Source: Acidovorax sp.
GTDB lineage: Bacteria; Pseudomonadota; Gammaproteobacteria; Burkholderiales; Burkholderiaceae_C
Direction of reading: 5' to 3'
Length of the DNA stretch: 64,000 nt
Assembly: GCF_046294525.1 (NCBI RefSeq)
Contig: NZ_JBKBKQ010000001.1
Location: forward strand, 231,263 to 295,262
Position numbers and translations under genes: made by a program. The notes below the pieces were generated by a model that saw nothing but the letters and a program-made list of their open reading frames with translations, was not told the origin of the DNA and did not search any database. Shown here piece after piece: positions 676-50,576 of this stretch. Position 1 is the stretch's first letter. The number at the start of each line of letters is the position of its first letter.

Positions 676-704
676 GCTTACTCCTCAGGCGGCAGGTGCC
701 AATT

Positions 705-8786: not shown

Positions 8787-8846
8787 TGATATCATTTTGA
8801 TAGCTATTAGCGCTTGCTGCATAAGCGCTAGCGGCCATTTTTACTC
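8787..8846 (-). repeat. copy A of ~55-60 bp palindromic repeat family (core TAGCGCTT-N-AAGCGCTA flanked by AGCTAT and CAAAA)
   Basis: Its reverse complement aligns almost base-for-base with the copy at 18998-19057. Confidence 0.55.
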
Positions 8847-8860
8847 ATATCCGGAAGCAC

Positions 8861-9684: not shown

Positions 9685-10539
9685 ATGAAATTCCAAGGCT
9701 CCCAGAACTACGTCGCCACCCAGGACCTCATGCTCGCCGTCAACGCAGCCATCACGCTGCAACGGCCTCTGCTGATCAAGGGCGAACCTGGAACGGGCAA
9801 GACGATGCTGGCCGAGGAAGTGGCACAGGCGCTCGACATGCCGCTGCTGCAGTGGCACATCAAGTCCACCACCAAGGCCCAGCAGGGCCTGTATGAATAC
9901 GACGCCGTGAGCCGCCTGCGCGACAGCCAGCTCAATGACGAAGGCAGCGCCGAACGCGTGAAGAACATCCGCAACTACATCGTGCAGGGCGTTCTCTGGC
10001 AGGCCTTCACGGCCGACCGGCCGGTAGCGCTGCTCATCGACGAGATCGACAAGGCCGACATCGAATTCCCGAACGACCTGCTGCGCGAGATCGACCGCAT
10101 GGAGTTCTACTGCTACGAGACGCGCGAACTCATCAAGGCCAAGCACCGCCCGCTGGTGTTCATCACGTCGAACAACGAAAAGGAACTGCCCGACGCCTTC
10201 TTGCGTCGCTGCTTCTTCCACTTCATCAAATTCCCCGAGGCCGACACCATGCGGCAGATCATCAACGTGCATTTCCCCACGCTCAAGAGCGAGCTGCTGA
10301 GCGTGGCAATGAAGACGTTCTATGACGTGCGCAATCTGCCGGGTCTCAAGAAAAAGCCCTCCACCAGCGAACTGATCGACTGGCTCAAGCTGCTGGTGGC
10401 CGAGGACATTCCGCTCACCGCACTGCAAAGCGCCGACAACAAGGTGGCCGTGCCGCCGCTGGTGGGCGCGCTGTTGAAGAACGAACAGGACGTGAGCCTG
10501 TTTGAAAAGCTGGTGTTCATGAATCAGCGCAACCGCTGA
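9685..10539 (+). CDS. MoxR-family AAA+ ATPase (CoxD/NorQ/CbbQ-like)
   Basis: Walker A GEPGTGKT, Walker B LLIDEIDK and sensor TSNNE; the start was set at an internal Met to remove overlap with cytochrome c4. Confidence 0.8.
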   Translation: MKFQGSQNYVATQDLMLAVNAAITLQRPLLIKGEPGTGKTMLAEEVAQALDMPLLQWHIKSTTKAQQGLYEYDAVSRLRDSQLNDEGSAERVKNIRNYIVQGVLWQAFTADRPVALLIDEIDKADIEFPNDLLREIDRMEFYCYETRELIKAKHRPLVFITSNNEKELPDAFLRRCFFHFIKFPEADTMRQIINVHFPTLKSELLSVAMKTFYDVRNLPGLKKKPSTSELIDWLKLLVAEDIPLTALQSADNKVAVPPLVGALLKNEQDVSLFEKLVFMNQRNR

Positions 10540-10555
10540 AGACTGGAGCCCGGCC

Positions 10556-11158
10556 ATGAGTTTCGTGGAACCGCTGGTCATGCGCCACAACGGGGTGCGG
10601 CTCGAACCTCTGGCGCTGTCGCATGAGGACGGGCTGCGCGCAGCCGCCGCTGATGGCGAGCTGTGGACGCTGCGCATCACATCCGTACCCGAGCCCGAAA
10701 ACACCCGCAAGTACATCGAGGACGCGCTGCGCATGCGCGCCGATGGCAACCGCTTTGCGTTTGCCGTGGTGGATGAGGCCACCAGCACCGTGCTGGGCAC
10801 CACGAGCTACCACGACATCCTGCCCGCCGTGAAGCGCGTGGAGATCGGCTACACCTGGTACCGCCAGAGCGTGCAGCGCACGCACGTCAACACCACCGCA
10901 AAGCTCTTGATGATGGGCCACGCGTTCGACACGCTGGGCTGCCACGTGGTGGGCTGGCGCACCGACAATTTCAATTTCGCGTCGCAACGCGCCATCGAGC
11001 GCCTGGGCGCCCAAAAGGACGGCGTGATCCGCGGCCACGCGCTGCGCCGCGACGGCACGATCCGCGACACGGTGATGTACAGCATGCGCGCTGGCGAGTG
11101 GCCCGAGGCCAAAGCGCAGCTGCTATATCTTTTAGAGCGCCGAGCGCACGCCCAATAA
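10556..11158 (+). CDS. GNAT-family N-acetyltransferase
   Basis: 200 aa with an acetyltransferase fold signature (VEIGYTWY, GCHVVGWRTDNFNFASQRAIERLG). Confidence 0.7.
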   Translation: MSFVEPLVMRHNGVRLEPLALSHEDGLRAAAADGELWTLRITSVPEPENTRKYIEDALRMRADGNRFAFAVVDEATSTVLGTTSYHDILPAVKRVEIGYTWYRQSVQRTHVNTTAKLLMMGHAFDTLGCHVVGWRTDNFNFASQRAIERLGAQKDGVIRGHALRRDGTIRDTVMYSMRAGEWPEAKAQLLYLLERRAHAQ

Positions 11159-11176
11159 GCGCTGGAGGCCAAAAAC

Positions 11177-12364
11177 ATGCTGATCGACTTCTTCTACACC
11201 CTGCGTTCGGCCAAGCTGCCTGTGTCCGTGAAGGAATATCTCACGCTGCTCGAAGCGCTGCAGGCCGGCGTGGTGGGCCCGAAGTCGGATGACGCATGGA
11301 GCCTGGACGATTTTTACAGCCTCTCTCGCCTGACCTTGGTGAAGGACGAGAAGCACTACGACAAGTTCGATCGGGCCTTCGGCGCCTACTTCAAGGGCGT
11401 GGAGATGGTGGCCGATTTCACCAAGGAGATCCCGGCCGACTGGCTGCGCAAGATTCTGGAGAACGAACTCACGCCCGAGCAGAAGGCCGCCATCGAGAAG
11501 ATGGGCTGGGACGAGCTGATGGAGACGCTCAAGAAGCGCCTGGAAGAGCAGAAAGAGCGCCACGAGGGCGGCAACAAGTGGATCGGCACCGGCGGCACCA
11601 GCCCATTCGGCCACGGCGGCTACAACCCGCAGGGCGTGCGCATTGGCGGCGCGGGCAAGAACAAGAGCGCGGTGAAGGTGTGGGAGCAGCGCGCCTACAA
11701 GGACTACGACGACCAGCAAGAGCTGGGCACGCGCAACATCAAGGTGGCGCTGCGCCGCCTGCGCAAGTTTGCGCGCGAAGGGCATGAGCTGGAGCTGGAC
11801 CTGCCCGACACCATCCGCAGCACTGCCGCCAACGCGGGCTACCTGGACATCAAGATGGTGCCCGAGCGGCACAACAACGTGAAGGTGCTGCTGCTAATGG
11901 ACGTGGGCGGCACCATGGACGAACACATCCAGCGCGTGGAAGAACTCTTTTCCGCGGTGAAGAACGAGTTCAAGCACCTGGAGTTTTATTACTTCCACAA
12001 CTGCGTGTACGACTTCATGTGGAAGAACAACCGCCGCCGCTTTGCCGAGAAGTTCCCGACCTGGGACATCATCCGCAAGTACAACAAGGACTACAAGCTG
12101 ATCTTCGTGGGCGACGCGACCATGAGCCCGTACGAAATCCTGCAGCCCGGCGGCAGCGTGGAATACAACAACGAGGAGCCGGGTGCCGAATGGATCCAGC
12201 GCCTCACACATGCCTTCCCCAAGCACGCCTGGATCAACCCCGAGCCCCAGGGCGTATGGCAGTACCGCCAGAGCATCAGCATCATCCAGCAGCTGCTGGG
12301 CAACCGCATGTACCCGCTGTCGCTCAAGGGGCTGGAAGAGACCATGCGGCTGCTGTCCAAGTAG
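11177..12364 (+). CDS. VWA-domain protein, CoxE-like partner of MoxR ATPase
   Basis: 395 aa with an N-terminal MLIDFFYTLRSAKLPVSVKEYLTLLEAL typical of the VWA_CoxE family, and a C-terminal VWA-like region. Confidence 0.7.
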   Translation: MLIDFFYTLRSAKLPVSVKEYLTLLEALQAGVVGPKSDDAWSLDDFYSLSRLTLVKDEKHYDKFDRAFGAYFKGVEMVADFTKEIPADWLRKILENELTPEQKAAIEKMGWDELMETLKKRLEEQKERHEGGNKWIGTGGTSPFGHGGYNPQGVRIGGAGKNKSAVKVWEQRAYKDYDDQQELGTRNIKVALRRLRKFAREGHELELDLPDTIRSTAANAGYLDIKMVPERHNNVKVLLLMDVGGTMDEHIQRVEELFSAVKNEFKHLEFYYFHNCVYDFMWKNNRRRFAEKFPTWDIIRKYNKDYKLIFVGDATMSPYEILQPGGSVEYNNEEPGAEWIQRLTHAFPKHAWINPEPQGVWQYRQSISIIQQLLGNRMYPLSLKGLEETMRLLSK

Positions 12365-14428: not shown

Positions 14429-17400
14429 TGGCCGCGCCCAACCCGCCCCCGGTGCCGCGCGCGCCATCGTCCGATTTCAGCGCGGGTTCGTCTTCCACCC
14501 GGCGCGCCCCGCGCCAGCGCATGCGCCGCGCTGCGCGTGTGCTGGGCTGGCTGCTGGTGGGCGTGGTGGCGCTGCTGCTCGCGGCCGCCGCTGCCCTGTG
14601 GTGGTGGGCGGGCAGCAGCACATCACTGGCTACCGCCCTGGCACGTGCCGCGCAGCACCTGCCGGCCGAGCAGCGACTGGAAAGCCGGGATGTCACCGGC
14701 TCCCTGCGTAGCGGCGGCCAGATCGGCTGGCTGCGCTGGAGCAGCCCTGCCCTCAGCGTAGAAGTCACGGACATCCGCCTGGGCTGGCAGTTGCTGCCGC
14801 TGCTCCAACGCCGCCTGGAGCTGGGCGAAGTCCACGCGGCGCGCGTGCTGATCACGCCCCAGGCGGTGGAAAAGCCCGAGCCCGACACCCGGCCTGCGCC
14901 ACTCGAATCGCTGGTGCTGCCGCTGCAGATCAGCGTGCCTTTTCGCGTGGACGAGATCCAGTGGGCCGGGCCGCCCGCCGTGCAGGCGCTGGGCCTGCAG
15001 GGGGATTACCACTTTGACGGGGCCGAGCACCGGCTCAACATCGGCCAGGTAGCGCTCGCCCAGGGCCGCTATAGCGCCCGCGTCACGCTGCAGGCCCAGG
15101 CCCCCATGGCACTGCAGGCCACCGTGGACGGCACACTCGAGACCGCCGTGCCCGGCAGTACCCGCACCACGCCCATCGCCCTGGGCGCGCACGCCACGCT
15201 GCAAGGCACGCTGGCCACGGCCGCCGCGCAGTTGCAGCTGCAGGCAAACATCCGCCCGGTCGCCGATGCTGCGCAGTCTGCAGCGCCGATTGCTTCAGGT
15301 GCTTCACGCGCAGGGGCGAACGCACAGGCCACCCCCGCATCCCGCACGCGCGCCAATGCCGCTCCGGCGCCCGAACCCATGCAGGCCGAAGTACGGGCCA
15401 CGCTGGCCCCCTGGGCGCCCCAGCCCCTGCAGTCCGCCACCGCCACGCTGCGCGCTGTAGACCTGGCCACCCTGTGGTCCGAGGCCCCTGCAACCCTGCT
15501 GCAAGGCACGGTGCAGGCCGGCCCCACGCACGCTGCAGGGGGCTGGGCACTGCAAGCCGATTTGCGCAACGACCTGCCCGGCCCCTGGGACCGCAACCGC
15601 CTGCCGCTGACGGCTCTGCAGGCCAGCGCCACCTACGACGGCACGCGCTGGAACGTGCCCGGCGCCACGGCCAGCGCCGGCTCTGGCAGCGCCACGCTGC
15701 AGGGCCACTTCACGCCGGCTACGGGCGCGCTGGAAGGCCGCGCCGACCTGCGCGGCATCCGCCCCGACGCGCTGCACACCGCCATGGCGGCCGCGCCGCT
15801 GTCGGGCCGGTTGCAGGCGCAAACGCAAGGCGACAGCGTGAGCTTCAGCGCCGATGTGCGCGCGGCCGCGGCTGAACGCGCGGCACCCGCAGGCAACCGC
15901 CCCACACCGTTGCGCATCAACACCTTCTCTGCAGAAGGCCGCTGGCAGCCGGCCCCCGCGTCGGCTGCGGGCGCGCAAACCGGCGGCACCATTCAAGTAG
16001 ACCGCCTGCTGCTGGACGCGCTGCAAGCCCGCGCCGAGGCCACCAACCTGCGCGTGGCCCTCGGCGCCCGGTCCGCACAGGGGCAGTTCGCACTCACCAT
16101 GCCCGGCACCACGCTGCGCGCCAGCGGCCAGGCCGGCCCGCAATCAGGCAACGGCGAGGTTCAATGGCAAAGCAGCGATATCGAGCGCACGCTGCGCTGG
16201 CTGACCACCCTGCCCTTTGTGGGCACGCAAGTGCAAGACGCGCTGCGCGGCGCCACCGCCAAAGGCGGTGTGCAGCTCAACGCGCGCTGGAAGGGCTGCT
16301 GGCAGGCAGCCGCGGACCAGTTGCAGGCCGCCGCCGCAGGCGCCGCGCTGCCGCGCAGCAGCACCGCGTTCGATCTGCAGGCCACGCTGACCACGCCCCA
16401 GCTCGACCTGACCTTGCCTGCTGCTCCGTCCGCACCTGCGGCCGCACCCACGCCCATGCCAGCGACCCCATCGCAGGCATCGCCTTCCGCCCAGGTCGTG
16501 ACAGCACCGCAGACCATTGCGTTGCGCGGCGTGTCTGCGGAGCTTTCGGGCACACTGGCCCAGGCCACCCTCGCACTGACCGGCGAGGCCCGCACCATGG
16601 GCCCGGAGCCTGTGCGTGCCAGCGTGCAAGCGCGCATCGCCGGTGGGCTGACGGGCGCAGGCCAGTGGCAGGCCCAGATCAACAGCCTGCGGCTGCAGGC
16701 CCAGCAAGGTCAGCGCCCCGGCCCCTGGGCGGTGCAGTTGGCGCAACCGCTGTCCATCACTGCCACGCAGGCGGCCACCACCACCACGGTGCAAACCTCC
16801 GCAGGCCAGGCCCAGCTAACGGGCCCTGCGCCGGGCGCCGTCACGCTGCGCTGGTCGCCCGCACGCTTGGCCATGACGCCCGCTGGCACGGCGCTGCAAA
16901 CGCAGGGCACGCTGCAGGGCCTGCCCACCGCCTGGGTGGACGCTCTGGGCCTGGGCACCCCGGCGCCTGCCGCACAGGGCAGCGCAGCGCAGCCCGCGGC
17001 CCAGCCACTGCTCGCCCGCATGGGCCTGGCCACCACGCTGGTGCTGGACGGCCAATGGAATGTGGACACCACCCAGCCCAACGCCCCGCGCGCCAGCGCC
17101 AGCCTGCGCCGTGCGGGCGGCGACCTGCGCATCCTGGCGGGCGACCCCACCGCCGTCACCGCCGTGCAAAGCAGCGGCCAGGGCACGGGCGCCGGCGCAC
17201 CCACACCGATTGCCACCGAAGCCACCGACAGCGCGGGGACGGCCCGCACAGCCACCCTGAGAAGCGCCACACCCGAGGCGGGCACGCCCGCCGGCGTACG
17301 CCAGGCCGAACTGGCCATCGACCTGGACGGCGACACCCTTCGCGCACGCCTGCAATGGGCCAGCGACCGCGCAGGCGAGATCGACGCCAACGCCACCACC

Positions 17401-18913: not shown

Positions 18914-18988
18914 CTCCTCGTAGTTCAATGGATAGAACGAGTGCCTCCTAAGCGCTAGATACAGGTTCGATTCCTGTCGAGGGGACCA
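18914..18988 (+). tRNA. tRNA-Arg (anticodon CCT)
   Basis: 75-nt cloverleaf folded by hand: acceptor CTCCTCG/CGAGGGG, D-arm GTTC-AATGGATA-GAAC, anticodon arm AGTGC-CTCCTAA-GCGCT, T-arm ACAGG-TTCGATT-CCTGT, discriminator A, encoded CCA. Confidence 0.8.
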
Positions 18989-18997
18989 GATTTATGG

Positions 18998-19057
18998 TCA
19001 AAATGGCCTCTAGCGCTTATTGGATAAGCGCTAGCAGCTATCAAAACAGTAGTATCC
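18998..19057 (+). repeat. copy B of ~55-60 bp palindromic repeat family (CTAGCGCTTAT-TGG-ATAAGCGCTAG perfect palindrome)
   Basis: Lies immediately 3' of tRNA-Arg and upstream of hsdM; aligns with the copies at 8787, 26281, 44668 and 50490. Confidence 0.6.
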
Positions 19058-19149: not shown

Positions 19150-20775
19150 ATGCTCCAAGACATCCAGAAAACCCTGTGGGCCACCGCCGACAAGCTGCGT
19201 GCCAACATGGACGCCGCCGAATACAAGCACCTGGTGCTCGGCCTCATCTTCGTCAAATACATCTCTGACACCTTTGCCGCCCACCACGCCACGCTGGTGC
19301 TGCGCCTGGCAGACCCCAACGACGAATACTTCTACGGTGACGCCGACCCCGCCGACATAGCCGCCGAGCTGGAAGACCGTGACTACTACAAGGAAGCCAA
19401 CGTCTTCTGGGTGCCCGAAGCCGCCCGGTGGGAGCAACTGCGCAGCAGCGCCAAGCAGCCCGACATTGGCAAACGCATTGACGACGCGCTGACGCTGATC
19501 GAGGCCGAGAACCCCACGCTCAAAGGCATCCTGGACAAACGCTACGCCCGTGCACAGCTGCCCGACGGCAAACTGGGCGAGCTGGTCGATTTGGTGTCAA
19601 CCATCGGCTTTGGCGACACCCCCGACGTGGCCCGCGACACCCTGGGCCAGGTGTACGAATACTTTCTGGGCATGTTCGCCAGCGCCGAAGGCAAACGCGG
19701 CGGGCAGTTCTACACGCCCGCCAGCATCGTCAAAACCCTGGTGGCCGTGCTCAACCCGCACACCGGCAAGGTGTACGACCCGTGCTGCGGCAGCGGCGGC
19801 ATGTTTGTGCAGAGTGAGAAGTTCATTGAGGCACACGGCGGCAAGAAGGGCGACGTCTCCATCTACGGGCAAGAGAGCAACCCCACCACCTGGCGCCTGG
19901 CCGCCATGAACCTGGCCATTCGCGGCATCGACTTCAACCTGGGCCGCGAACCCGCCGACACCTTTGTGCGCAACCAGCACCCCGACTTGCGCGCCGACTT
20001 CATCCTGGCCAACCCGCCCTTCAACATCAGCGACTGGTGGCACCCCAGTTTGGAGGGCGACGCCCGCTGGGTGTATGGCGACCCACCCCACGGTAACGCC
20101 AACACCGCCTGGCTGCAGCACATGCTGCACCACCTCAAAGCCACGGGCCGTGCGGGCATCGTGCTGGCCAACGGCAGCATGAGCAGCAGCCAGAACAACG
20201 AAGGCCAGATCCGCGCCGCCATGGTCGATGCCGACGTGGTGGAAGTGATGATCGCCCTGCCCGGCCAGCTGTTTTTCAACACGCAAATCCCGGCGTGCCT
20301 GTGGTTTTTGGCCAAAAGCAAGAAGCGCAAGGGCGAGGTGCTGTTCATCGACGCCCGCAAGCTCGCCACCCCTATCAGCCGCGTGCAGGGCGAGCTGACC
20401 GACGAAGTCATCGACCGCATCGCCGCCACTGTAGCCGCCTGGCGCGGCGAGCCCGCACCCACCGTCATCACGCCCTCGTCCTCGTCCACCCCAAACCCCG
20501 TTCGGGCTGAGCCCGTCGAAGCCCACCCCCACCCCACCCCCTACCAGGACATACCCGGCTTCTGCCGCAGCGTGCCCCTGGCCGAGATCGCCCAACACGG
20601 CCACGTACTCACCCCCGGCCGCTACGTGGGCGCCGAGGCGGTGGAGGACGACGACGAAGCCTTTGCCGACAAGATGGTGAAGCTGACGGAAAAGCTGGGT
20701 GAGCAGATGGCCAAGGGCGCGGAGCTGGATGCGGTGATTCGGCAGAAGTTGGGGGGGTTGGGGTATGAGTTCTGA
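19150..20775 (+). CDS. hsdM: Type I restriction-modification N6-adenine DNA methyltransferase subunit HsdM
   Basis: HsdM N-terminal domain ([32 protein letters not shown]), SAM-binding motif (DPCCGSGGM) and catalytic NPPF (LANPPFN). Confidence 0.9.
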
Positions 20776-22015
20776 GTGGCCTCAAGTCTCACTTCGAGAG
20801 TTTGCAGATCTACTCGCTGGGTTCGCATTTAAAAGCAGCGGCTACACAGACGACTCCTCGGATGTTCGACTCCTTCGAGGAGACAACATCGCACCCGGCC
20901 AAGTCCGGTGGGATGGTGTAAAGCGGTGGCCCAAAGCTCCGGCTCTCACACTGTCGAGATATCGCTTGGAACCCGGCGATGTCGTGCTCGCTATGGATCG
21001 ACCGTGGATACCCGCTGGTTTGAAGGTTGCGCAGGTTACCGAAACCGACACGCCTAGCTACTTGGTACAGCGCGTTGCTCGCCTTCGTACAACTTCACGA
21101 GAGGATCGCAGCTTTCTATTTGCGCTCTTATCAACGACAGATTTTGAGTCGTACATCCAGAACGCGACTACTGGAACAGCCGTTCCTCACATCAGCGCCA
21201 AGCAAATACTCGACTACAAATTTAATCTTCCACCAGCGACTGTACGAACTGGAATCGGCGCTCTCGCAGCTGCACTTAACGACCGCATCACCCTCCTGCG
21301 CGAAACCAACGCCACGCTCGAAGCCATTGCCCAGGCGCTGTTCAAGTCGTGGTTTGTCGATTTCGACCCCGTGCGCGCCAAGATGGAAGGCCGTGCCCCC
21401 GAAGGCATGGACGAAGCCACCGCCGCGCTGTTTCCCGATGCGCTGGAGGAGTCGGAGTTGGGGGAGGTGCCGAGGGGGTGGCTACCCGTTCGACTGAACT
21501 CGTTTTTGGAGCTTGCTTACGGGAAGGCACTCAAAGCAGAAAACCGCAACCCCGGTCCAGTGCCTGTGTATGGGTCTGGCGGAATTACGGGGTGGCACGA
21601 CACGCCGCTGATTGATAGCCCGTCGATCATCGTCGGCCGTAAGGGCACAGTTGGAAGCCTCTACTGGGAGAGCCGCCCGTTCTACCCAATCGATACGGTC
21701 TTTTACGTGAAGTCCAAGTGTCCGTTGACGTATTGCCACCAGCTTTTGAAGACTGTGGGTTTGCATGACATGAATACCGATGCAGCGGTCCCTGGGTTGA
21801 ACAGAGAAAACGTCTATCGCTTGCTGGTTCCAGATGCCCCTGCAAACGTTCTCGCAGCGTTCGATGCGTCGGCCAACGCATTGAGAAACAGCATCGACCA
21901 AAACGAAGCCCAAGCCCAAACCCTCTCCACCCTCCGCGACACCCTGCTCCCCCACCTGATCTCGGGCCAGTTGCGCTTGCCCGAGTCGCAGGCCGCTATG
22001 AAGGACGCGTTATGA
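20765..22015 (+). CDS. hsdS: Type I R-M specificity subunit HsdS
   Basis: 416 aa with two target-recognition domains separated by conserved repeats; both TRD regions are visibly lower in GC; overlaps the hsdM stop. Confidence 0.85.
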
Positions 22016-22713
22016 CCGAACGCATCCACATCTATTGCGACGAGTCGTGCCATCTGGAAAACGACCACATGCGTGCGATGGTGCTGGGCGCCGTGTGGTG
22101 CTCGGCGTCGCATCGGCAGTCGCTGGCAGACAAGATCAAACGCTTGAAAGCAGACTACGGTTTGCCAGCTCAGTTTGAAATCAAGTGGGTGAAGGTGTCA
22201 CCCGGAAAATTGCCGTTCTACCAAGCGTTGCTGGACTTGTTTTTCGACGAACCCTTGCTGCATTTCCGAGGATTGGTGGTGCCAGATAAGGGGGCCTTGG
22301 ATCATGGCCGTTTTTCCCAAAGCCATGACGATTTCTATTACAAGCAGTGGTACACGCTACTCAATCGACTGATCGACCCGAGCAACCGATACCGCATTTT
22401 TCTGGACATCAAGGACACACGCGGCCAAGCCAAGGTGCGCAAGCTGCACGATGTGCTGTGCAACGCCAACTATGACTTCGACCGCAATGTGATCGAGTCG
22501 ATCGAACTGGTGCATTCGCACGATGTGCTGCTACTCCAACTGGCAGACCTGCTGATTGGTGCGCTGGCGTATGTGCACCGGGGTTTGCACGGCAGCCCGG
22601 CCAAGCTGGCGCTGGTGGCGCATCTACGGCACCGCTCGGGCTTGCGGCTGGAACAAAGCTCACTGCTGCGGGCAGACAAGTTCAATCTGTTCATCTGGAG
22701 GCCGCAGTCTTGA
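22012..22713 (+). CDS. DUF3800-like protein embedded in Type I R-M locus
   Basis: 233-aa ORF beginning [15 protein letters not shown]... (the IYxDES motif is typical of DUF3800); GC is lower than its surroundings; ATGA start/stop overlap with hsdS. Confidence 0.55.
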   Translation: MTERIHIYCDESCHLENDHMRAMVLGAVWCSASHRQSLADKIKRLKADYGLPAQFEIKWVKVSPGKLPFYQALLDLFFDEPLLHFRGLVVPDKGALDHGRFSQSHDDFYYKQWYTLLNRLIDPSNRYRIFLDIKDTRGQAKVRKLHDVLCNANYDFDRNVIESIELVHSHDVLLLQLADLLIGALAYVHRGLHGSPAKLALVAHLRHRSGLRLEQSSLLRADKFNLFIWRPQS

Positions 22714-22715
22714 GC

Positions 22716-23216
22716 ATGCCGCCACCTTTGATGCCATTCAGTGGGGATGACGACTGGGCCGACTATGAAGATGCCATTTACGAGGTGTACTTGCAGACGG
22801 TTGCACATGCTCAGCTCACGTTCATGGGTGCCCCGGTCAAAGTGCGCTTTATGCCGACCACCAAACACAAAGGCTACGGGTTTTGGCACTTGATCTCTGA
22901 AGCACCCGACCAGGACAACCGGAATGAAGATGACCGCGTACCTGACCTGCGCCGATGCGAGCGGGTGCGCTGGGTGGCATGGTGCATTCAGAATGCAGGC
23001 AAGACGGGGTTTTCGTGGTGGGAAAACGACCGCAAAGGTCAAACCCATGTGGTCATATGGGCCGAGGAGCACGACTATGCGGTGATGCTGGGCAAGCGAA
23101 ACACGCCAGAAGGAGTTCGCTTTTATTTGCTCAAGACCGCCTACTGCCTGCGGTCACACAACGTACGCCGCTTTGCCAAGGAACGCGATGCGTATTGGGC
23201 AAGCCAGAAAGACTGA
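22716..23216 (+). CDS. hypothetical protein (166 aa) co-transcribed with DUF3800-like gene
   Basis: Its ATG lies 3 nt after the DUF3800 stop; moderately low GC; no recognisable motif. Confidence 0.4.
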   Translation: MPPPLMPFSGDDDWADYEDAIYEVYLQTVAHAQLTFMGAPVKVRFMPTTKHKGYGFWHLISEAPDQDNRNEDDRVPDLRRCERVRWVAWCIQNAGKTGFSWWENDRKGQTHVVIWAEEHDYAVMLGKRNTPEGVRFYLLKTAYCLRSHNVRRFAKERDAYWASQKD

Positions 23217-23391
23217 AGCCCCGGCACACGGATGTGCAAGGGCTTCGGATACTCCTTCTACACGTGGTAGATGAGCTGGGCTGATTGTAGCGGTGCAAGC
23301 AAATCAAGGCATTCCGAATGTTGTATTACCCACAAAAAGCGAAAAGCATACTGGCGGCGCGGGGCCGCTGCTGGGGAGTTGCCTGTGGGGC

Positions 23392-23453
23392 TCCGAACAT
23401 TCGCAGCTGAGGTCCGAACATTTACAGCTCAGCTCCGAACATTCGCAGATACC
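23392..23453. repeat. 3 tandem ~21-bp direct repeats (TCCGAACATTCGCAGCTGAGG-like)
   Basis: Read directly in the AT-richer intergenic region upstream of fic. Confidence 0.6.
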
Positions 23454-23620
23454 AAAAGCCGCGCGATGCCGAGAATCTCCGGCCACTTGCGCTTGTCCGA
23501 GGCGCAGGCGCTAATCAACGCGGTTTGAAACTGAACAGCTATGAAAGTGGTCTTTCACAGCGGCCCGACCTTTAAAGAGTTCTTTCACAGCTTGCCGGAC
23601 GACAAGCTGGGCGTCGCTGA

Positions 23621-23651
23621 CATGTATAGAAATCCGCGTTTTCTATACATG
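23621..23651. promoter_or_regulatory. perfect 12-bp inverted repeat CATGTATAGAAA-N7-TTTCTATACATG (candidate operator upstream of fic)
   Basis: Read directly; a second AAATCCG(C/T)GTTTT motif repeats ~25 bp downstream. Confidence 0.4.
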
Positions 23652-23764
23652 TCGCAGTCCACATGCTTAAAAATCCGTGTTTTTTGTACAGATGCTGGCT
23701 AACATGGTGAAGCCATTGCGTTTTTTCGCCATGTTTCCCCCTCCCCCACTCTGGATGCACCGGC

Positions 23765-24841
23765 ATGCCTTTTGACCGCAGCCAACCCCACAACGACCTG
23801 CCCCTGCTGCCGCCCGCAGTAGAGCTGGAGAGCAAGGCTGTGCTCAAGCAGGCGATTGCGGCCAACCGGGTGCTGGCCAACCTGCGCGGGCTGGCGGCGC
23901 AGATTCCGAACCAGGGCGTGCTGATCAACAGCATCGTGCTGCAGGAAGCGCGCTTGTCGTCGGAAATTGAAAACATCGTCACCACCAACGACGAGCTGTA
24001 TCGCGCCGACGCGGACGCTGACGGCAAGGCCGATGCCCATACCAAGGAGGTGTTGCGCTACCGCGAGGCGCTCTACCACGGCTTTGCCGCGCTGAAAGAC
24101 CGCCCTTTGAGCACCAATCTGTTCATAGAGATAGCCCAGCGCATCAAGCAGATGGATTTGCAGGTGCGCGCCGTGCCCGGCACGGCTTTGAAGAATGAGC
24201 GGGGCGAGGTGGTGTACACGCCGCCTGTGGGCGATGCGGTGATTCGCGACAAGCTGTCCAACCTTGAAAAGTTCATCCACGCCGATGACGACCTCGACCC
24301 GCTGGTAAAGATGGCGGTCATGCACTACCAGTTCGAGGCGATTCACCCGTTCCCGGATGGCAACGGCCGCACGGGGCGCATCCTGAACCTGCTGTTTCTG
24401 GTGGAAAAGGGCTTGCTGGACATTCCGGTGATGTTCCTGTCGCGCTACATCATTGCCCACCGTGCGGCCTACTACGAGGGTTTGCGCCGGGTGACGGAAG
24501 AGCAGGACTGGGAGAACTGGCTGCTTTACATGCTGCGTGCGGTGGAAAGCACGGCTCAGCAGACGTTTGATCAGGTCAACCGCATCCGTGACTTGATGGA
24601 GCAGGTGCGCGAGCGTGTGCAGCGCGAAGCGCCTGGCGTGTACAGCAAAGACCTGATCGAGGTGATCTTCAAGCAGCCCTATACAAAAATCCAGTTCGTG
24701 GTGGACGCTGGCATTGCCAAACGGCAAACCGCGTCCGGTTACCTGCAAACCCTGGCGGGCCTGGGCGTGCTGCGCGAAAGCAAGCACGGGCGCGAGAAGT
24801 ACTACATCAACGACGCCTTGTTGGCAGAGCTGGTGGGTTGA
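23765..24841 (+). CDS. fic: Fic/Doc-family protein (AMPylation-type Fic)
   Basis: Canonical Fic motif HPFPDGNGRTGR, sitting between hsdS and hsdR, which is a well-known association. Confidence 0.85.
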   Translation: MPFDRSQPHNDLPLLPPAVELESKAVLKQAIAANRVLANLRGLAAQIPNQGVLINSIVLQEARLSSEIENIVTTNDELYRADADADGKADAHTKEVLRYREALYHGFAALKDRPLSTNLFIEIAQRIKQMDLQVRAVPGTALKNERGEVVYTPPVGDAVIRDKLSNLEKFIHADDDLDPLVKMAVMHYQFEAIHPFPDGNGRTGRILNLLFLVEKGLLDIPVMFLSRYIIAHRAAYYEGLRRVTEEQDWENWLLYMLRAVESTAQQTFDQVNRIRDLMEQVRERVQREAPGVYSKDLIEVIFKQPYTKIQFVVDAGIAKRQTASGYLQTLAGLGVLRESKHGREKYYINDALLAELVG

Positions 24842-24921: not shown

Positions 24922-27900
24922 ATGGCATCGACACATCCGCCACCTCTCAGCCCCGGACCTGACCGCATGACCGAAGACCAGCTCGAACGCGAAACCCTGG
25001 CCTGGCTGCAGGACGTGGGCTACACCCACATCGCCGGTCCCGACATCGCCCCCGACGGCCCCGCGCCCGAGCGCAGCGACTACCGCCAGGTGCTGCTGGC
25101 AGGCCGCCTGAAGGCAGCGCTGATGCGGCTGAACCCTGCCGTGCCCGTGGTGGCCATCGACGACGCGCTGGCGCAGGTGCAAGACCTGGGCGTGCCCGCG
25201 CTGCTGGCGGCCAACCGACGGTTTCACCGGCTGCTGGTGGCGGGCGTGCCGGTGCAGTACCAGCGCGGCAACGAGACAGTGGGCGACTTCGTGCGCCTGG
25301 TGGACTGGGCTGCGCCCGAGCGCAATGAGTGGCTGGCGGTGAACCAGTTCAGCGTGCGCGGGCCGCGCCACACGCGCCGGCCCGACGTGGTGCTGTTTGT
25401 GAACGGCCTGCCGCTGGTGCTGCTGGAGTTAAAAAACCCCGCCGACCAGGCCGCCAGTGTGTGGAAGGCGTACGACCAGATCCAGACGTACAAAGAGCAG
25501 ATCCCGGACCTGTTTAACACCAACGAGGTGCTGGTGATTTCAGACGGCACCGAGGCACTGCTGGGGTCGCTGAGCGCAAGCGCCGAGCGCTTCATGGCGT
25601 GGCGCACGATTGACGGCGTGGCGCTGGACCCGCTGGGCCAGTTCAACGAGCTGCAGACACTGGTGCGCGGCGTGCTGGCGCCGCAATACCTGCTGGACTA
25701 CCTGCGCTACTTTGTGCTGTTTGAGGACGATGGGCAGCTGGTCAAAAAGATCGCGGGCTACCACCAGTTTCATGCGGTACGCGCCGCCATTGCGCAGGTG
25801 GTGGCTGCTGCCACGCCGGGCAGCGGCGCAGACCCGGCCATCAAGGGCAAGGGCGGCGTGGTGTGGCACACGCAGGGCAGCGGCAAGAGCATCACCATGA
25901 CCTGCTTTGCCGCCCGCGTGATGCAGGAGCCCGCGCTGCAGAACCCCACCATCGTGGTCATCACCGACCGCAACGACCTGGACGGCCAGCTGCTGGGCGT
26001 GTTTGGCCTGGCGCAAGACCTGCTGCGCGAGCAGCCCGTGCAGGCCCGCACCCGGCAAGAGCTGCGCACGCTGCTGGCCAACCGCCCCTCGGGCGGCATT
26101 GTGTTTGCCACCATCCAGAAGTTCATGCCCAGCGAGGACGAAGACAGCTACCCCATGCTGTCGGACCGCCACAACATCGTGGTGATTGCCGACGAGGCGC
26201 ACCGCACGCAGTACGGGTTTGAGGCGCGACTGAAGGTGCGCAAGGCTGATGTGAAGGCCGATGGGAAGGAAGATTTCAAGCCAAATCAGGCTATAGCGCT
26301 TGATACACAAGCGTCACCAGCTACAAATAATGTAGCAAACCCCATCGCCACAGGCAGCGGCACCGCCCCCGCACACCGCGCCGAATTTGCGCCGCCCACC
26401 TACCGGGCAGGCACCGAAGCGAACACAGTGGAACACGCCCGCGAGCATTACCAGGTGGGCTACGCCCAGCACCTGCGCGATGCTCTGCCCAACGCCACCT
26501 TTGTGGCGTTTACCGGCACCCCGGTGAGCGGCACCGACCGCGACACGCGCGCCGTGTTTGGCGACTACATCCACGTGTATGACATGCAGCAGGCCAAGGA
26601 AGACGGCGCCACCGTGGCCATCTACTACGAAAGCCGCATGGTGAAGCTGGGCCTGAAGGCCGACGAGCTGCCCAGCATTGACGCCGAGGTGGACGAGCTG
26701 GCCGAGGACGAAGAAGAAAGCGTGCAGTCGCGCCTGAAAAGCCGCTGGGCGGCGCTGGAGCAGGTGGTGGGCGCCGAGCCCCGCGTGGCGCGCGTGGCGC
26801 AGGACCTGGTGGCGCATTTTGAAGAGCGCAACACCGCCCAGCTCGGCAAGGCCATGGTGGTGGCCATGAGCCGCGACATCTGCGCGCACCTGTACAACGA
26901 GATCGTGCGCCTGCGCCCCGACTGGCACAACGCCGACCCCGAGCTGGGCGCCATCAAGATCGTGATGACCGGCAGCGCCAGCGACAAAGCGCTGCTGCGC
27001 CCGCACATCTACAGCGCGCAGGTGAAAAAGCGGCTGGAAAAGCGCTTCAAAGACCCGGCCGACCCGCTGCGCATCGTGATCGTGCGCGACATGTGGCTGA
27101 CCGGCTTTGACGCGCCCTGCGTACACACCCTGTATGTAGACAAGCCCATGAAGGGCCATAACCTGATGCAGGCCATTGCCCGCGTGAACCGCGTGTTCAA
27201 GGACAAGCAGGGTGGCCTGGTGGTGGACTACATCGGCATTGGCAACGAGCTGAAAGCCGCCATGAAGGAATACACCGCCGCCCAAGGCCGGGGCCGCCCC
27301 ACGGTGGACGCGCACGAGGCCTTCAGCGTGGTGCTGGAAAAGCTGGATGTGCTGCGCGCCCTGCTGCACGGGTTTGACTACAGCGGCTTTCTGACGGGCG
27401 GCCACCGCGTGCTGGCGGGTGCTGCCAACCACGTGCTGGGCCTGCCGCGCCAGGCCGGGCAAGACGGCAAAAAACGGTTTGCCGACACTGCCCTGGCGAT
27501 GAGCCAGGCCTTTACCCTGAGCTGCACACTGGACGAGGCGAAGGGCGTGCGCGAGGAAGTGGCCTTCATGCAAGGCGTCAAGGTCATCCTGACCAAGCGC
27601 GACATCACCGCCAAGCAACGCACCGACGAGCAGCGCGAGCTGGCAGTGCGCCAGATCATCAGCCATGCAGTGGTGTCTGAAAGTGTGGTGGACATCTTTG
27701 ACGCCGTGGGGTTGGAGAAGCCCAACATCGGCCTGCTGGACGAAGGCTTTCTGGCCCAGGTGCGGGCGCTGCCCGAACGCAACCTGGCGGTGGAGTTGCT
27801 GGAGCGACTGCTGGAGGGCGAGATCAAGAGCCGCTTTGCCAGCAACGTGGTGCAAAGCAAAAAGTTCTCGGAGCTGCTGGGCGGCGTGATCGTGCGCTAC

Positions 27901-28296
27901 CAGAACCGCAGCATTGAAACCGCCCAGGTGATGGAAGAACTGCTGGACATGGCCCGCCAATTCCGCGAGGCACATGGTCTGGCCGACAAGCTGGGGCTGA
28001 GCGAAGACGAGGTGCGCTTTTACACCGCGCTGGCCGAGAACGAATCTGCCGTACGCACGCTGAGCGACGACACGCTGAAAAAAATCGCCCACGAACTGAC
28101 CGACAACCTGCGCAAAAACCTGACGGTGGACTGGACCGAGCGCGAGAGCGTGCAAGCCAAGCTGCGCCTGATGGTCAAACGCATCTTGCGCAAGTACAAA
28201 TACCCGCCGGACCTGGAAGCTGCAGCGGTGGAGCTTGTGCTGCAACAAGCGCAGGCATTGGGTGAAGAGTGGAGCGAGCTGGCTGCAGCGGTCTGA
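24922..28296 (+). CDS. hsdR: Type I R-M endonuclease/helicase subunit HsdR
   Basis: SF2 helicase motifs (GSGKS, DEAHRTQ, FTGTP); the start may be the second Met at 24967; it contains an unusually long low-GC insertion between DEAH and the FTGTP motif. Confidence 0.9.
26281..26340 (+). repeat. degenerate in-frame copy C of the ~55-60 bp palindromic repeat inside hsdR
   Basis: CAAATCAGGCTATAGCGCTTGATACACAAGCGTCACCAGCTACAAATAATGTAGC aligns with copy B; there is a local GC dip. Confidence 0.45.
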
Positions 28297-30197: not shown

Positions 30198-30842
30198 ATG
30201 TTTGCCAGTCTTCTTGGGGCGGTCTCCGCGTTCCCGACCGCCATCTACACCGTGCTGTTGGGCGTGGTGCTGGTGTATTGGCTGATGGCCATGCTGGGCA
30301 TGGTGGACTTCGAGTCCAGCGGCATCGACGTGGCGATTGACGCCCACGCCGACGCCAGCGTGGACGACCTGGGCACCATTGCCAGCTATGTGGTGGCCTT
30401 CGGCCTGCACGGGGTGCCGTTCTCCATTGTGGTGAGCCTGCTGGTGCTGGTGGGATGGACGCTGTCCTTCCTGGCCGGCGTCACGCTGCTGGCCTGGGTG
30501 CCCACCGACATCCTGCGCTGGGCAGCTGGCGCCGTGGTGCTGGTGGTGACTGCGGCGCTGTCGGTGGTGATCACGGCGCGCATCGTGCGGCCGCTGCGCG
30601 GGCTGTTTGTGCACCACACGGCGCAAAGCAATGCCTCGCTGGTGGGCCAGACCTGCAAGGTGCTGACCGGCGTGGTGGACGAGCGCCAGGGCCGTGCCGA
30701 AGTGGCCCAGCGCGGCGCCAGCATCAACATCCGCGTGTGGTCGCCCAGCCCCAACACCTTGAAGCGCGGCGACGCCGCGCTGATCACCGAATACGACCCG
30801 GGCAGCCACCGCTACCTGGTTGTGCCGCTGCCACCCGCGTGA
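30198..30842 (+). CDS. YqiJ/NfeD-like inner membrane protein (DUF1449-like), flotillin partner
   Basis: 214 aa with N-terminal TM helices and a C-terminal OB-like soluble domain, directly upstream of the flotillin gene as in yqiJ-yqiK. Confidence 0.6.
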   Translation: MFASLLGAVSAFPTAIYTVLLGVVLVYWLMAMLGMVDFESSGIDVAIDAHADASVDDLGTIASYVVAFGLHGVPFSIVVSLLVLVGWTLSFLAGVTLLAWVPTDILRWAAGAVVLVVTAALSVVITARIVRPLRGLFVHHTAQSNASLVGQTCKVLTGVVDERQGRAEVAQRGASINIRVWSPSPNTLKRGDAALITEYDPGSHRYLVVPLPPA

Positions 30843-30937
30843 TGTGGCGCCCCACGGGGCGTCCGCCGGGCCAGGCTCCGTCGTTTTTCCAAGTTTCCTT
30901 TTCTCTCTCCACCCTTTCACCAGAAAGCGTACTTCTC

Positions 30938-33064
30938 ATGCCGCAATCCTTCATGGTCATCCTGATTGCCGTTGGCATCTTTGTCTTCCTGATCCTGGCG
31001 ATGTTCGCCATGTTCGCGAAGTTCTACCGGAAGGTGGAGCAAGGCCACGCGCTCATCATCAACACCCTGCGCTCCGAGCCCGAAGTCACCTTCACCGGCC
31101 GCATGGTCTACCCCATCATCCACAAGGCCGAGCTGATGGACATCTCGGTCAAGACCATCGAGATCGACCGCTCGGGCGACCAGGGCCTGATCTGCGCGGA
31201 CAACATCCGCGCCGACATCAAGGTGAAGTTCTTCGTGCGGGTGAACAAGACGGCCGAGGACGTGCTGCGCGTGGCGCAAGGCATTGGCTGTGCGCGCGCG
31301 TCCAACCACGAGATTCTGGAAGACCTGTTCTCGGCCAAGTTCTCCGAGGCGCTCAAGACCGTGGGCAAGTCGCTCGACTTCGTGGACCTGTACCAGGCGC
31401 GCGATGCCTTCCGCGACAAGATCATCGAGCAGATCGGCGACGACCTGTCGGGCTATGTGCTGGAAGACGCGGCGATTGACTACCTGGAGCAGACGCCGCT
31501 GTCCAAGCTTGATGCCAACAACATCCTCGACGCGCAGGGCATCAAGAAGATCACCCAACTCACTGCAGTGGAACACGTGGTGACCAATGAGCTGCGCCGC
31601 AACGAGGAAATGCAGATCAAGAAGAAGAACGTGGAAACGCAGGAAGCCCTGCTGGAGCTGGAGCGCCAACAGGCCGACGCCACCGCCCGCCAGGCGCGCG
31701 AAGTGGCCAGCGTGAAGGCGCGCGAAGAAGCCGAAACCGCCAAGGTGCGTGCCGAAGAACACACACGCGCCGAGATGGCGCGCCTGCAGTCCGAACAGTT
31801 GCTGGCCGTGCAGAACGAGAACGTGTTGCGCGAGAAGGAAGTGGCCGAGAACAACCGCAAGCGTGCGGTGGTGATCGAGCAGGAGCGCGTGACCCGCGCG
31901 CAAGACCTGGAAGTGGTGGCGCGCGAGAAGGAAGTGACGCTGCAACGCATTGAAAAAGACAAGGCGGTGGAGGTACAGAAGAAGGCCATTGCCGACGTGG
32001 TGCGCGAACGCATCGTGGTCGAACGCACGGTGGCCGAGCAGGAAGAAGCCATCAAGGAAGTGCGCGAAGTGGCCGAGGCCGACCGCACCCGCAAGGCCGT
32101 AGTCATCGGCGCCGAAGCAGCTGCCGAAGAAAAGGTGATCCTGGAAGTGAAGGCTGCTGAAGCCCAGGAACGCAAGGCGCGCCACAAGGCCGCCGAAGAC
32201 CTGGTGCTGGCCGACGCCCGTCTGAAGGTGGCCGAGCGCGAGGCCGAAGCCAAGAAGCGCGAAGCCGAAGGCATTGAAGCCCTGACCGCCGCGCCCGGCC
32301 TGGCCGATGCCAAGGTGCAGATGGCCAGCGCCAGCGCCAAACTGGCCACCATGGAAGCCGAAGCCAGCGGCAAGGAAAAAATTGGCCGTGCCGAAGCCCA
32401 GGTGACCGAAGCCCAGGCACATGCCGACGCCGTGGGCCTGCGCGCCCGCATGGAAGCTGAAGCCGCCGGCAAGGAAAAGGTCGGCCAGGCCGAAGCCTTG
32501 GTGCGCACCGTGGACGCCGAAGCCCTGGCCAAGATGGGCGACGCCGAAGCGCACAACATCGACGTGAAGTTCAACGCCGAGGCGCGCGGCCTGAAGGAAA
32601 AGTTCGAGGCCATGAAAGCCATGAGCACCGAAACGCGCGAGCACGAGGAGTACCGCATGCGCCTGGAGCGCGCGCACCTCGAAACCCTGAAGCAGATCGA
32701 GGCGCAGCAGCACATCGCCAAGGAACAGGCCGAAGTGCTGGGCGTGGCGCTGAAGAACGCGCGCATCGACATCGTGGGCGGCCAGGGCGACTACTTCGAC
32801 AGCTTTGTGCGTGCGCTGTCCGTTGGCAAGGGCATCGACGCGGCCGTGAACAAAAGCGACACGCTGCAGGTGGCCTTCAAAGACCAGCTCAGCGGCGAGC
32901 GCGACGTGGTGGAAGACGTGAAACAGATCCTGGGCGCTGCAGGCCAGTCGGCAGGCGAGCTGCAGAACCTGAGCGTCTCGGCCCTCATCGCACGGGTGAT
33001 GCAGACCGGCACCGACAGCCAGAAGCAGGCCTTGCAGCAACTGGCACAGAGCTTTCGCAAGTAA
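30938..33064 (+). CDS. flotillin-family protein (SPFH/band 7 domain, YqiK-like) with a long coiled-coil extension
   Basis: N-terminal TM segment then an SPFH domain (...PIIHKAELMDISVKTIEIDRSG...ICADNIRADIKVKFFVRV...), followed by ~450 aa of E/A/K-rich coiled coil; 708 aa. Confidence 0.85.
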   Translation: MPQSFMVILIAVGIFVFLILAMFAMFAKFYRKVEQGHALIINTLRSEPEVTFTGRMVYPIIHKAELMDISVKTIEIDRSGDQGLICADNIRADIKVKFFVRVNKTAEDVLRVAQGIGCARASNHEILEDLFSAKFSEALKTVGKSLDFVDLYQARDAFRDKIIEQIGDDLSGYVLEDAAIDYLEQTPLSKLDANNILDAQGIKKITQLTAVEHVVTNELRRNEEMQIKKKNVETQEALLELERQQADATARQAREVASVKAREEAETAKVRAEEHTRAEMARLQSEQLLAVQNENVLREKEVAENNRKRAVVIEQERVTRAQDLEVVAREKEVTLQRIEKDKAVEVQKKAIADVVRERIVVERTVAEQEEAIKEVREVAEADRTRKAVVIGAEAAAEEKVILEVKAAEAQERKARHKAAEDLVLADARLKVAEREAEAKKREAEGIEALTAAPGLADAKVQMASASAKLATMEAEASGKEKIGRAEAQVTEAQAHADAVGLRARMEAEAAGKEKVGQAEALVRTVDAEALAKMGDAEAHNIDVKFNAEARGLKEKFEAMKAMSTETREHEEYRMRLERAHLETLKQIEAQQHIAKEQAEVLGVALKNARIDIVGGQGDYFDSFVRALSVGKGIDAAVNKSDTLQVAFKDQLSGERDVVEDVKQILGAAGQSAGELQNLSVSALIARVMQTGTDSQKQALQQLAQSFRK

Positions 33065-33175
33065 GCAAAAACCATAGCATCTGGCGCTTGGTGCACAAGG
33101 GCTTCAGATGTTTTTCATTTGAAACCCAATGAAATCAAGCGCCAAAAGCTCTCATTTTCATAGCACAACACAGCC

Positions 33176-44556: not shown

Positions 44557-44667
44557 GGCTGCGAGGTCCTCTTTGAAAAGCGGGCTCTGTACCCGGGTGG
44601 CATTGTGAGGGCCTTCCCCAACAACCGTCTGGCGCCCAGGCGACGCTCAGCTCTGCGGCAGAAATTT

Positions 44668-44725
44668 CAAGCCATTTCGGCATCTAGCGCTTATCTATCA
44701 AGCGCCAGGAGCTATTGTTTCAGGA
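44668..44725 (+). repeat. copy D of ~55-60 bp palindromic repeat family
   Basis: CATCTAGCGCTTATCTATCAAGCGCCAGGAGCTATTGTTTC; it overlaps the stop codon of the histidine kinase gene. Confidence 0.5.
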
Positions 44726-49450: not shown

Positions 49451-49558
49451 GGCAAGGTCCTTTGCAGAGAGGAATGGTTGATGGGTATGGACTTTATTGA
49501 TTGCCAAAGGACCGATAAATCACCAAAATTCAGATTCATTGTCCAGATTAAACAAACA

Positions 49559-50509: not shown

Positions 50510-50552
50510 CTGCCAGCGCTTGCTGGATAAGCGCTAGAAGCCAAAAACACTT
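50490..50552 (-). repeat. copy E of ~55-60 bp palindromic repeat family
   Basis: Its reverse complement, TTTTTGGCTTCTAGCGCTTATCCAGCAAGCGCTGGCAGCTATTTTTTT, aligns with copy B; it overlaps the LysR stop codon and last codons. Confidence 0.5.
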
Positions 50553-50576
50553 CAAACCCTGTGAATTGACGGATAG

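Follow-up and report, generated by a model that had tools for sequence, protein, structure and literature searches.

A 65-nt dispersed repeat carried in frame within a predicted surface loop of the type I restriction subunit HsdR in Acidovorax

In-frame insertion of small palindromic repeats in functional genes is established for the Rickettsia palindromic elements (RPEs), intragenic enterobacterial repetitive intergenic consensus (ERIC) sequences and QMITE1 (PMC10969869). Repetitive extragenic palindromic (REP) sequences also occur inside genes of DNA metabolism, e.g., in recB, where Xanthomonas campestris and X. oryzae have them at roughly one site (Di Nocera et al. 2013, PMC3733652), a survey in which neither Comamonadaceae nor hsdR is mentioned. 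Here we analyze a 64,000-nt stretch of an Acidovorax sp. genome (contig NZ_JBKBKQ010000001.1; “the window”), in which hsdR, the gene for the restriction and translocase subunit of a type I restriction-modification (R-M) system, contains a copy of a 65-nt repeat at positions 26274–26338. We consider it likely, with a probability of roughly 85%, that this copy was inserted in frame in a permissive loop of HsdR and is a neutral passenger there, in an enzyme that is most likely functional. Like the intragenic REPs of the survey above, it lies wholly inside the open reading frame (ORF) of a nucleic-acid enzyme, adds a short peptide and occupies the same site in the orthologues of related species; those REPs have a GTAG or CGTC tag and a link to a REP-associated tyrosine transposase (RAYT), neither of which is established for the hsdR element. 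Our literature search found no description of this Comamonadaceae repeat, nor of repeats in hsdR. The features on which the argument depends are the following.

24922–28296, plus strand: hsdR coding sequence of the type I R-M system, 1124 aa (from the ORF list and translation)
26191–26211, plus strand: helicase motif II, DEAHRTQ, residues 424–430 (from the translation); D424, E425, H427 and R428 invariant in a 97-sequence alignment
26212–26508, plus strand: spacer between motifs II and III, 99 aa, its length hypervariable among orthologues
26274–26338, plus strand: copy of the dispersed 65-nt repeat, in frame with hsdR and coding for F452–A472 (~21 codons; nhmmer E=2.5e-8, model positions 1–65)
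26509–26523, plus strand: helicase motif III, FTGTP, residues 530–534; T531, T533 and P534 invariant in the 97-sequence alignment

Base composition already sets the segment apart, with GC content dipping to 0.43–0.47 at 26250–26340 and lying at 0.60–0.78 on both sides. A first nhmmer profile, built from four intergenic window copies only and searched against the window and 80 orthologous loci, matches 26271–26338 (E=0.004) as well as the homologous positions in four Acidovorax relatives (E=6e-8 to 2e-4). A second profile, obtained through two iterations from which all matches in hsdR loops were excluded (51 sequences, 65 positions), matches 26274–26338 end to end over all 65 positions (E=2.5e-8). 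In a repeat search, the hsdR copy (segment 26283–26330) clusters with the intergenic copies at 8797, 19000, 44674 and 50503, and it has the 5' flank ATTTCAAGCCA in common with the copy at 44674. No match was reported by blastn for the window's own loop copy; the homologous loop copy of the relative L001 matches the window's intergenic copy at 44662–44730 (E=8e-6). When intergenic copies are virtually translated in frame +2, they reproduce a peptide similar to F452–A472. An in-frame, low-GC repeat copy within hsdR had been proposed in the initial annotation of this DNA, and both the profile searches and the GC dip bear it out. The peptide quoted there for the extra segment is present in the HsdR translation, and the repeat family and the flank shared with 44674 are real, whereas the unit measures 65 nt and not the 55–60 bp given.

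The family is clearly dispersed. The pattern AGCGCTT-N7-AAGCGCT, allowing ≤2 mismatches, occurs 8 times in the window, where 0.6 occurrences are expected and shuffled sequences hold at most 2. With the 51-copy profile we count 85 non-overlapping copies in the window and the 80 loci, all of them single units in the DNA examined. Eight copies are in the window; the one in hsdR is deep within a gene and the other seven, found by the profile search, are between ORFs or at gene ends.

650–709, minus strand: weaker copy at a gene boundary
8787–8849, minus strand: intergenic copy
11121–11178, minus strand: weaker copy across the junction of two ORFs
18992–19055, plus strand: intergenic copy directly after tRNA-Arg(CCT), upstream of hsdM
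33072–33121, minus strand: weak intergenic copy (E=0.003)
44666–44729, plus strand: intergenic copy with the 5' flank ATTTCAAGCCA, as in the hsdR copy
50495–50555, minus strand: copy between convergent ORFs, overlapping a gene end

The copies at 11121–11178 and 50495–50555 overlap the 3' ends of ORFs 10523–11158 and 49421–50509, so the element may supply C-terminal residues or stop codons to neighboring genes.

In the Acidovorax unit, the 5' part (TTTNAAGNCAAATNGGC) is accompanied by a perfect palindrome at the center (CTAGCGCTT-loop-AAGCGCTAG) and by a second hairpin of the form AGCTAY-(A/T-rich loop)-RTAGC. CTAG rather than GTAG bounds the central palindrome; the strings GTAGC or ATAGC belong to the 3' arm of the last hairpin (C, below), with no clear correspondence to the REP tags. 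In Polaromonas and Rhodoferax, the variants have a conserved sequence (GGCCTCTAGCC...GCGCAAGCAGCTAT...TAGCAA) and fold no better than shuffled sequences (z about 0). Being a short imperfect palindrome in many, mostly extragenic, copies, the family shares these general traits with REP-type repeats. Terminal inverted repeats are absent, as there is no complementarity between the ends (TTTNAAG... and ...TAGCAA), and the core is flanked by direct TCAAAA motifs. No target-site duplication was seen in the 12 nt on each side of the 85 copies, which is a weak negative given that the ends of the element are not sharply defined. With neither feature seen, the element resembles REP-type repeats more than it does a MITE (miniature inverted-repeat transposable element) in the strict sense, and the term “MITE-like” used for it initially is a loose label. 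The repeat matched no Rfam family, at either gathering or E-value thresholds.

In the hsdR copy, the RNA fold of 26274–26340 contains three hairpins.

26279–26292, plus strand: hairpin A (AGCC...GGCU)
26296–26314, plus strand: hairpin B, the family's central palindrome (GCGCTTG-ATACA-CAAGCGT); the outer CTAG...CTAG pairs are lost in the hsdR copy
26320–26336, plus strand: hairpin C (GCTACA-AATAA-TGTAGC)

The fold has an energy of -21.6 kcal/mol (z=-6.5), and 0 of 200 shuffles were as stable. A scan of 25900–26700 for promoters and terminators gave consensus-level matches only, and no U-tract follows the hairpins.

Close relatives date the insertion and show how the gene has evolved since. Four of them, A. 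radicis N35 (L001), a metagenome-assembled genome (L002), A. benzenivorans (L003) and Acidovorax sp. WCS2018Noco2-16 (L004), hold the hsdR copy at a position identical to that in the window, and the metagenomic protein P0001 also has it at the same place. Judging from this shared position, the insertion predates the split of the window genome from A. radicis N35, A. benzenivorans and the two other relatives. Over 700 flanking codons compared between the window and L001–L004, nonsynonymous differences per site (pN) amount to 0.008–0.011 and synonymous differences per site (pS) to 0.167–0.178, a ratio of about 0.06. The element itself has diverged by 0.11–0.14, next to 0.12–0.14 at 4-fold degenerate sites, and its 14 variable sites are spread 4/6/4 over the codon positions, with no bias. 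Within Acidovorax, stems are not spared either (4 of 26 stem sites variable versus 10 of 39 elsewhere, p=0.37). Every length difference is a multiple of three, and the frame is kept in 81 of 81 loci and 120 of 120 database homologues. Purifying selection on the flanks combined with a neutral rate in the element indicates that the gene has been kept functional since the insertion and that the inserted segment is constrained only to remain in frame.

The protein has every part expected of a restriction subunit. Pfam domains HSDR_N, SWI2_SNF2/ResIII, T1R_D3-like and T1RH-like_C are found with E-values of 3.7e-48 to 1.6e-115, the motifs GSGKS, DEAH and TGTP are conserved, and the architecture comprises an N-terminal nuclease domain, two RecA-like superfamily 2 (SF2) motor domains with motifs I–III, and a helical domain at the C-terminus. 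An AlphaFold2 run on a shallow alignment (61 sequences, about 80% identical) was uninformative, with a predicted local distance difference test score (pLDDT) of 48, and was repeated with a diverse alignment of 97 sequences. The resulting model has a mean pLDDT of 84.4 and a predicted template modeling (pTM) score of 0.75, and its best Foldseek match is the HsdR of EcoR124I (E=1e-30). Residues 448–503 form its largest low-confidence segment, with block means of 30–38 and no secondary structure. They emerge between the strands 436–439 and 508–511, just before helix 514–521 and the motif III strand. The model thus supports a placement of the element in a disordered surface excursion from a beta-hairpin.

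The spacer that holds the element is long even without it. Between the DECHRSQ and FTGTP motifs of EcoR124I HsdR there are about 19 residues; 77 full-length distant representatives (31–57% identity) have spacers of 19–40 aa (modes 22 and 31–33, median 31), the 120 closest database homologues 35–115 aa, and the 80 species-level loci, mostly Burkholderiales, 51–115 aa. All 150 of 150 distant hits align as two stretches that skip query residues from about 434 to 511. The initial annotation had correctly noticed an enlarged spacer, whose length is 99 aa and not ~90; its figure of ~40 aa in relatives suits the distant ones and fails for the nearest orthologues. It had also ascribed the extra length to the insertion, which holds for only ~21 of the roughly 65 extra residues. 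The excess is composite: an older clade module, the repeat, a 12-nt tandem duplication and small indels together make up the difference, not one insertion.

The innermost layer is a family-typical hairpin of about 33–35 aa (YGFEAKLK...YQVGYAQ), which stands alone in Polaromonas sp. JS666 (P0113) and in P0079. Onto it come the repeat and the two layers listed here.

26347–26403, plus strand: older clade-specific module, residues 476–494, GC-rich, in most Burkholderiales orthologues including element-free ones
26242–26269, plus strand: 12-nt tandem duplication (AAGGCCGATGGG, 2.3 copies; KADV-KADG), found with Tandem Repeats Finder (TRF)

The clade module brings the spacer to about 59–63 aa. A derivation of this module from a repeat was considered and rejected, since blastn gave no matches outside hsdR loops. 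At the tandem duplication, the alignment shows L001 and L002 without 12 nt and L003 and L004 without 24 nt; a further extra of the window is a 12-nt indel near 26430. In the element-free orthologues of Variovorax (L034, L021) and Rhodoferax (L014), the alignment gap covers the element and its immediate flanks, so that the comparison with insert-free orthologues proposed at the outset favors an insertion. We rejected Acidovorax sp. SUPP3334 (L082), the nearest element-free relative, as a clean empty site because its loop is AT-richer and ends in ...CTACAAAACCCATAGTGA, resembling a decayed 3' hairpin, with no significant element. Over aligned columns, the proteins P0113 and P0079 share 83% identity with the window protein, and they have a spacer of just 35 aa (YGFEAKLKGKQGQESYQGGYAQ...); this is probably a secondary loss of the whole clade-specific insert, which would show that the insert is dispensable.

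Across the window and the 80 loci, 23 of 81 sequences have a significant copy of the family in the hsdR loop, and all 23 copies are on the coding strand, in the same frame (+2) and with the same 3' junction (...TAGCAA|CYGGYGAYGG). A neighbor-joining tree of the flanking protein groups most orthologues that bear the element in a single Comamonadaceae clade, mixed with element-free members; L072 (Ottowia), L054 and probably L073 (Xylophilus) bear the element and are placed elsewhere. This distribution implies more than one gain, or an exchange of loop segments. In L038 the loop element looks partly deleted. Intergenic copies are free of stops in the hsdR frame in 28% of cases, against 41% and 61% for two other frames, so a uniform frame calls either for common descent or for selection acting on the peptide. 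We rejected the shared frame as evidence proving a single insertion, because an independent insertion in an amine-oxidase gene of L082 uses it too and because selection on the peptide can explain it. That gene (amine-oxidase family, 14891–16561 of BQXQ01000018.1) holds an in-frame 65-nt copy at 15508–15572 (E=2.5e-5, peptide GWKPNQPLAQIHLGLDAITFIAW), with a local GC dip, and a second, weaker copy at 16383–16443; hsdR is thus not the sole gene to have been colonized.

The loop has also taken up unrelated sequences. In L016 (Rhodoferax antarcticus), a second repeat family encodes SLRGAQRRGNP and is 95% identical to the intergenic repeats 3241–3279 and 20063–20098 of L015. The L016 spacer (11240–11584, 115 aa) contains both the 65-nt element and this second family, and P0005 has an insertion related to that of L016 (EASLRAQRGNPEPWIATASGLAMT). 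A third family is found in L081, where a 42-nt insertion at 11386–11427 encodes GLRQAQGERASGSE and matches an intergenic repeat at L011:5186–5212; the L011 loop (about 11373–11381) is an empty site for it, and the two loops are otherwise 89–94% identical. The peptide motif EALRQAQGER of the L081 insertion recurs in P0015, P0021, P0058, P0063, P0074, P0091 and P0094. Tandem YQV duplications are present in the loops of L078, L007 and L050. The loop is a permissive site: insertions of three or more repeat families accumulate in it, as do tandem duplications and deletions, all in multiples of three.

These results can be assembled into a course of events in which the insertion step is the part that we infer. 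The source is a 65-nt hairpin-forming non-coding repeat of the REP or small-MITE kind, common in Comamonadaceae intergenic DNA, and it would have inserted into hsdR at the tip of the beta-hairpin between helicase motifs II and III. With one of the six reading frames of the element open in the hsdR copy, and with a net length change that preserved the hsdR frame, the element is translated as about 21 Ala/Pro/Gln/Asn-rich residues in a surface excursion predicted to be disordered. It would then have drifted as a neutral passenger; the strong purifying selection on the rest of HsdR suggests that the enzyme is most likely still functional.

Several observations weigh against so simple a history. 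For 7 of 18 genomes, the loop copy that best matches the genome's intergenic copies, among 15–19 unrelated loops, is the one from that genome, and the mean normalized rank is 0.22 instead of the expected 0.5 (P<5e-5), for loci that are not fully phylogenetically independent. The core CTCTAGACCAATNAATACGGGCGCAAGCAGCT is common to the loop and intergenic copies of L011, L012 and L081, lineage-specific cores are shared in this way in L023 and L054 too, and the elements of L011 and L012 differ by 0.085 whereas their flanks differ by 0.38 at 4-fold sites. Such own-genome resemblance means that the history is not simply one insertion followed by decay, and the pattern in L011, L012 and L081 suggests re-insertion or gene conversion in some lineages. 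The three stable hairpins retained in the window copy could hint at selection on structure, though substitutions do not avoid the stems. Nor have target-site duplications, terminal inverted repeats or a transposase been identified, no screen of the window for a Y1 transposase having been made, and the retained restriction activity of HsdR is something we infer from selection. One might therefore see in the hsdR copy not a passive relic but an active or functional member of the repeat population, either overwritten again and again, through gene conversion or site-specific re-insertion, by the repeat variant now current in the genome, or kept for its DNA or RNA structure, possibly as a protein-binding site or to control translation or mRNA decay of the restriction subunit. 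The own-genome ranks, the shared cores, the closeness of the L011 and L012 elements, the very stable fold of the window copy and the occurrence of 23 of 23 hsdR copies in a frame open in just 28% of intergenic copies all speak for it. We regard it as quite unlikely, since the element evolves at the neutral rate in the window lineage with no codon-position or stem bias, the Polaromonas and Rhodoferax variants fold no better than shuffles, many orthologues lack the element altogether, and the loci behind the own-genome test are not independent. Moreover, the window's loop copy is as distant from the intergenic copies of the window as from those of other genomes (0.59 versus 0.59; rank 5 of 14). 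A related idea, also unlikely in our view, is that the loop between motifs II and III in this HsdR clade may be a long-lived “safe harbor” in active use by the small repeats of the genome, in which copies are repeatedly re-inserted or gene-converted and track the repeat variant of their genome, with hairpins perhaps co-opted for expression tuning. If this were true, it would amount to concerted evolution between a copy in coding sequence and hundreds of intergenic copies, and the embedded hairpins might tune the expression of the restriction subunit.

The opposite possibility, that the insertion inactivated HsdR and left a decaying gene or a methylation-only remnant, had been raised initially as the alternative to tolerance in a surface loop. 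It might be expected of an insertion between two catalytic helicase motifs that contributes to a spacer three times the family norm, but we find it very improbable: the ORF runs uninterrupted over 1124 codons, every helicase motif is conserved, pN/pS has been about 0.06 since the insertion in the five genomes that share the copy, the frame survives many indels in the 81 loci and 120 database homologues, and the structure model predicts an external, disordered loop for the insert. Tolerance, by comparison, agrees with the purifying selection on the rest of the gene, the gaps in element-free orthologues and the structure model. Hardly any credence can be given to an ancestral low-complexity linker that resembles the repeat by coincidence. 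Similar peptides (KPN..LAL..AQAA..V) do occur in orthologues of several genera, which the initial annotation would have counted as grounds for such a linker; the 23 loops concerned are themselves significant DNA matches to the repeat, so that this criterion would wrongly reject an insertion that four other Acidovorax share. The match at the DNA level extends over all 65 positions and persists when hsdR copies are excluded from the profile, frame +2 of the intergenic copies yields the peptide, and the segment is missing from distant relatives and from many close ones. In-frame insertion of a repeat copy into a permissive loop of HsdR remains, to us, the reading that best accommodates these data.

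The gene is the last of an R-M operon that begins immediately 3' of tRNA-Arg(CCT) (18914–18988). Both hsdM and hsdS are intact and lie upstream of hsdR on the same strand.

Ends at 20775, plus strand: hsdM ORF, with HsdM_N and N6_Mtase domains
20765–22015, plus strand: hsdS ORF, with a Methylase_S domain

The order is hsdM, hsdS, a DUF3800 gene, an unknown ORF, a Fic gene (23765–24841) and hsdR. At the start of the operon (18914–19055), a repeat copy follows the tRNA gene by a few bases and precedes hsdM, and the tRNA-repeat junction is kept in L001–L003; the operon resembles an island sited at a tRNA gene. The interval between hsdS and hsdR (22012–24841) holds the DUF3800 gene, a 168-aa ORF (the unknown one) and the Fic/SoFic-like gene. 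At the equivalent position, L081 has a Fic gene and L082 instead an SLFN/AlbA_2 ATPase-type gene; from these differences, the cargo between hsdS and hsdR is variable. A sub-threshold Rfam match to the DUF3800-XI RNA at 47417–47454 scores 25.8 bits (E=0.12), where the gathering score is 37.8; it lies ~25 kb away from the DUF3800 gene and is probably due to chance. Two 60-nt direct repeats (80% identical, 99 nt apart; 32345–32503) lie within an 869-aa ORF (30455–33064) and are an internal protein repeat unrelated to the hsdR element.

The main significance of the locus, in our view, is the recurrent colonization of one loop by several repeat families, together with the co-variation of coding and intergenic copies. 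As far as sequence comparison can tell, it would be an example of a selfish or structural DNA repeat that lengthens an enzyme under selection without apparent harm, and a single surface loop appears to absorb repeat insertions again and again across Burkholderiales. The loop marks a permissive HsdR site for protein engineering or tagging. For annotators, AT-rich dips and odd peptides (FKPNQ..LAL..AQAA, GLRQAQGER, SLRGAQRRGNP) in high-GC genes can be recognized as translated repeats, and the co-variation of hsdR and intergenic copies offers a tractable test of gene conversion versus turnover in small bacterial repeats.

Among described systems, the HsdR of EcoR124I (PDB 2W00 and related entries) has the same domain order and fold, and its motifs II and III align with those of the window protein; its short spacer holds no repeat, and its C-terminal domain is of another family than T1RH-like_C. 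REP and REPIN populations mobilized by RAYT (PMC3116915, PMC3337134) resemble the 65-nt family in being short hairpin repeats of high copy number, mostly extragenic, with persistent lineage-specific variants. REPINs are inverted REP doublets, whereas the 65-nt element joins a central palindrome to a second, different hairpin between direct TCAAAA flanks, and unlike REPs or REPINs the family is conserved in sequence without folding in Polaromonas and Rhodoferax. In making in-frame fusions with host ORFs as a non-autonomous repeat, QMITE1 of Coxiella burnetii (PMC5896051, PMC10969869) is comparable. A strict MITE the element is not, because terminal inverted repeats and target-site duplications, which MITEs have, are not visible here. 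As far as they are summarized in PMC10969869, the RPEs (Ogata et al. 2000) share with the hsdR element a palindromic repeat placed in frame in a functional gene and translated as an extra peptide, and, according to the same summary, a fold-tolerant position, predicted for HsdR to be at the surface, in a host gene that remains under selection. They are described there as about 100–150 bp long, as elements of AT-rich obligate intracellular alphaproteobacteria, and as intragenic for a large fraction; the element studied here has 65 nt, belongs to a high-GC free-living betaproteobacterium, has 1 of its 8 window copies in a gene and bears no sequence relationship to them. In its behavior, then, the hsdR element resembles RPEs or intragenic REPs, being translated in frame, in a gene under purifying selection, at a permissive position that is predicted to be surface-exposed.

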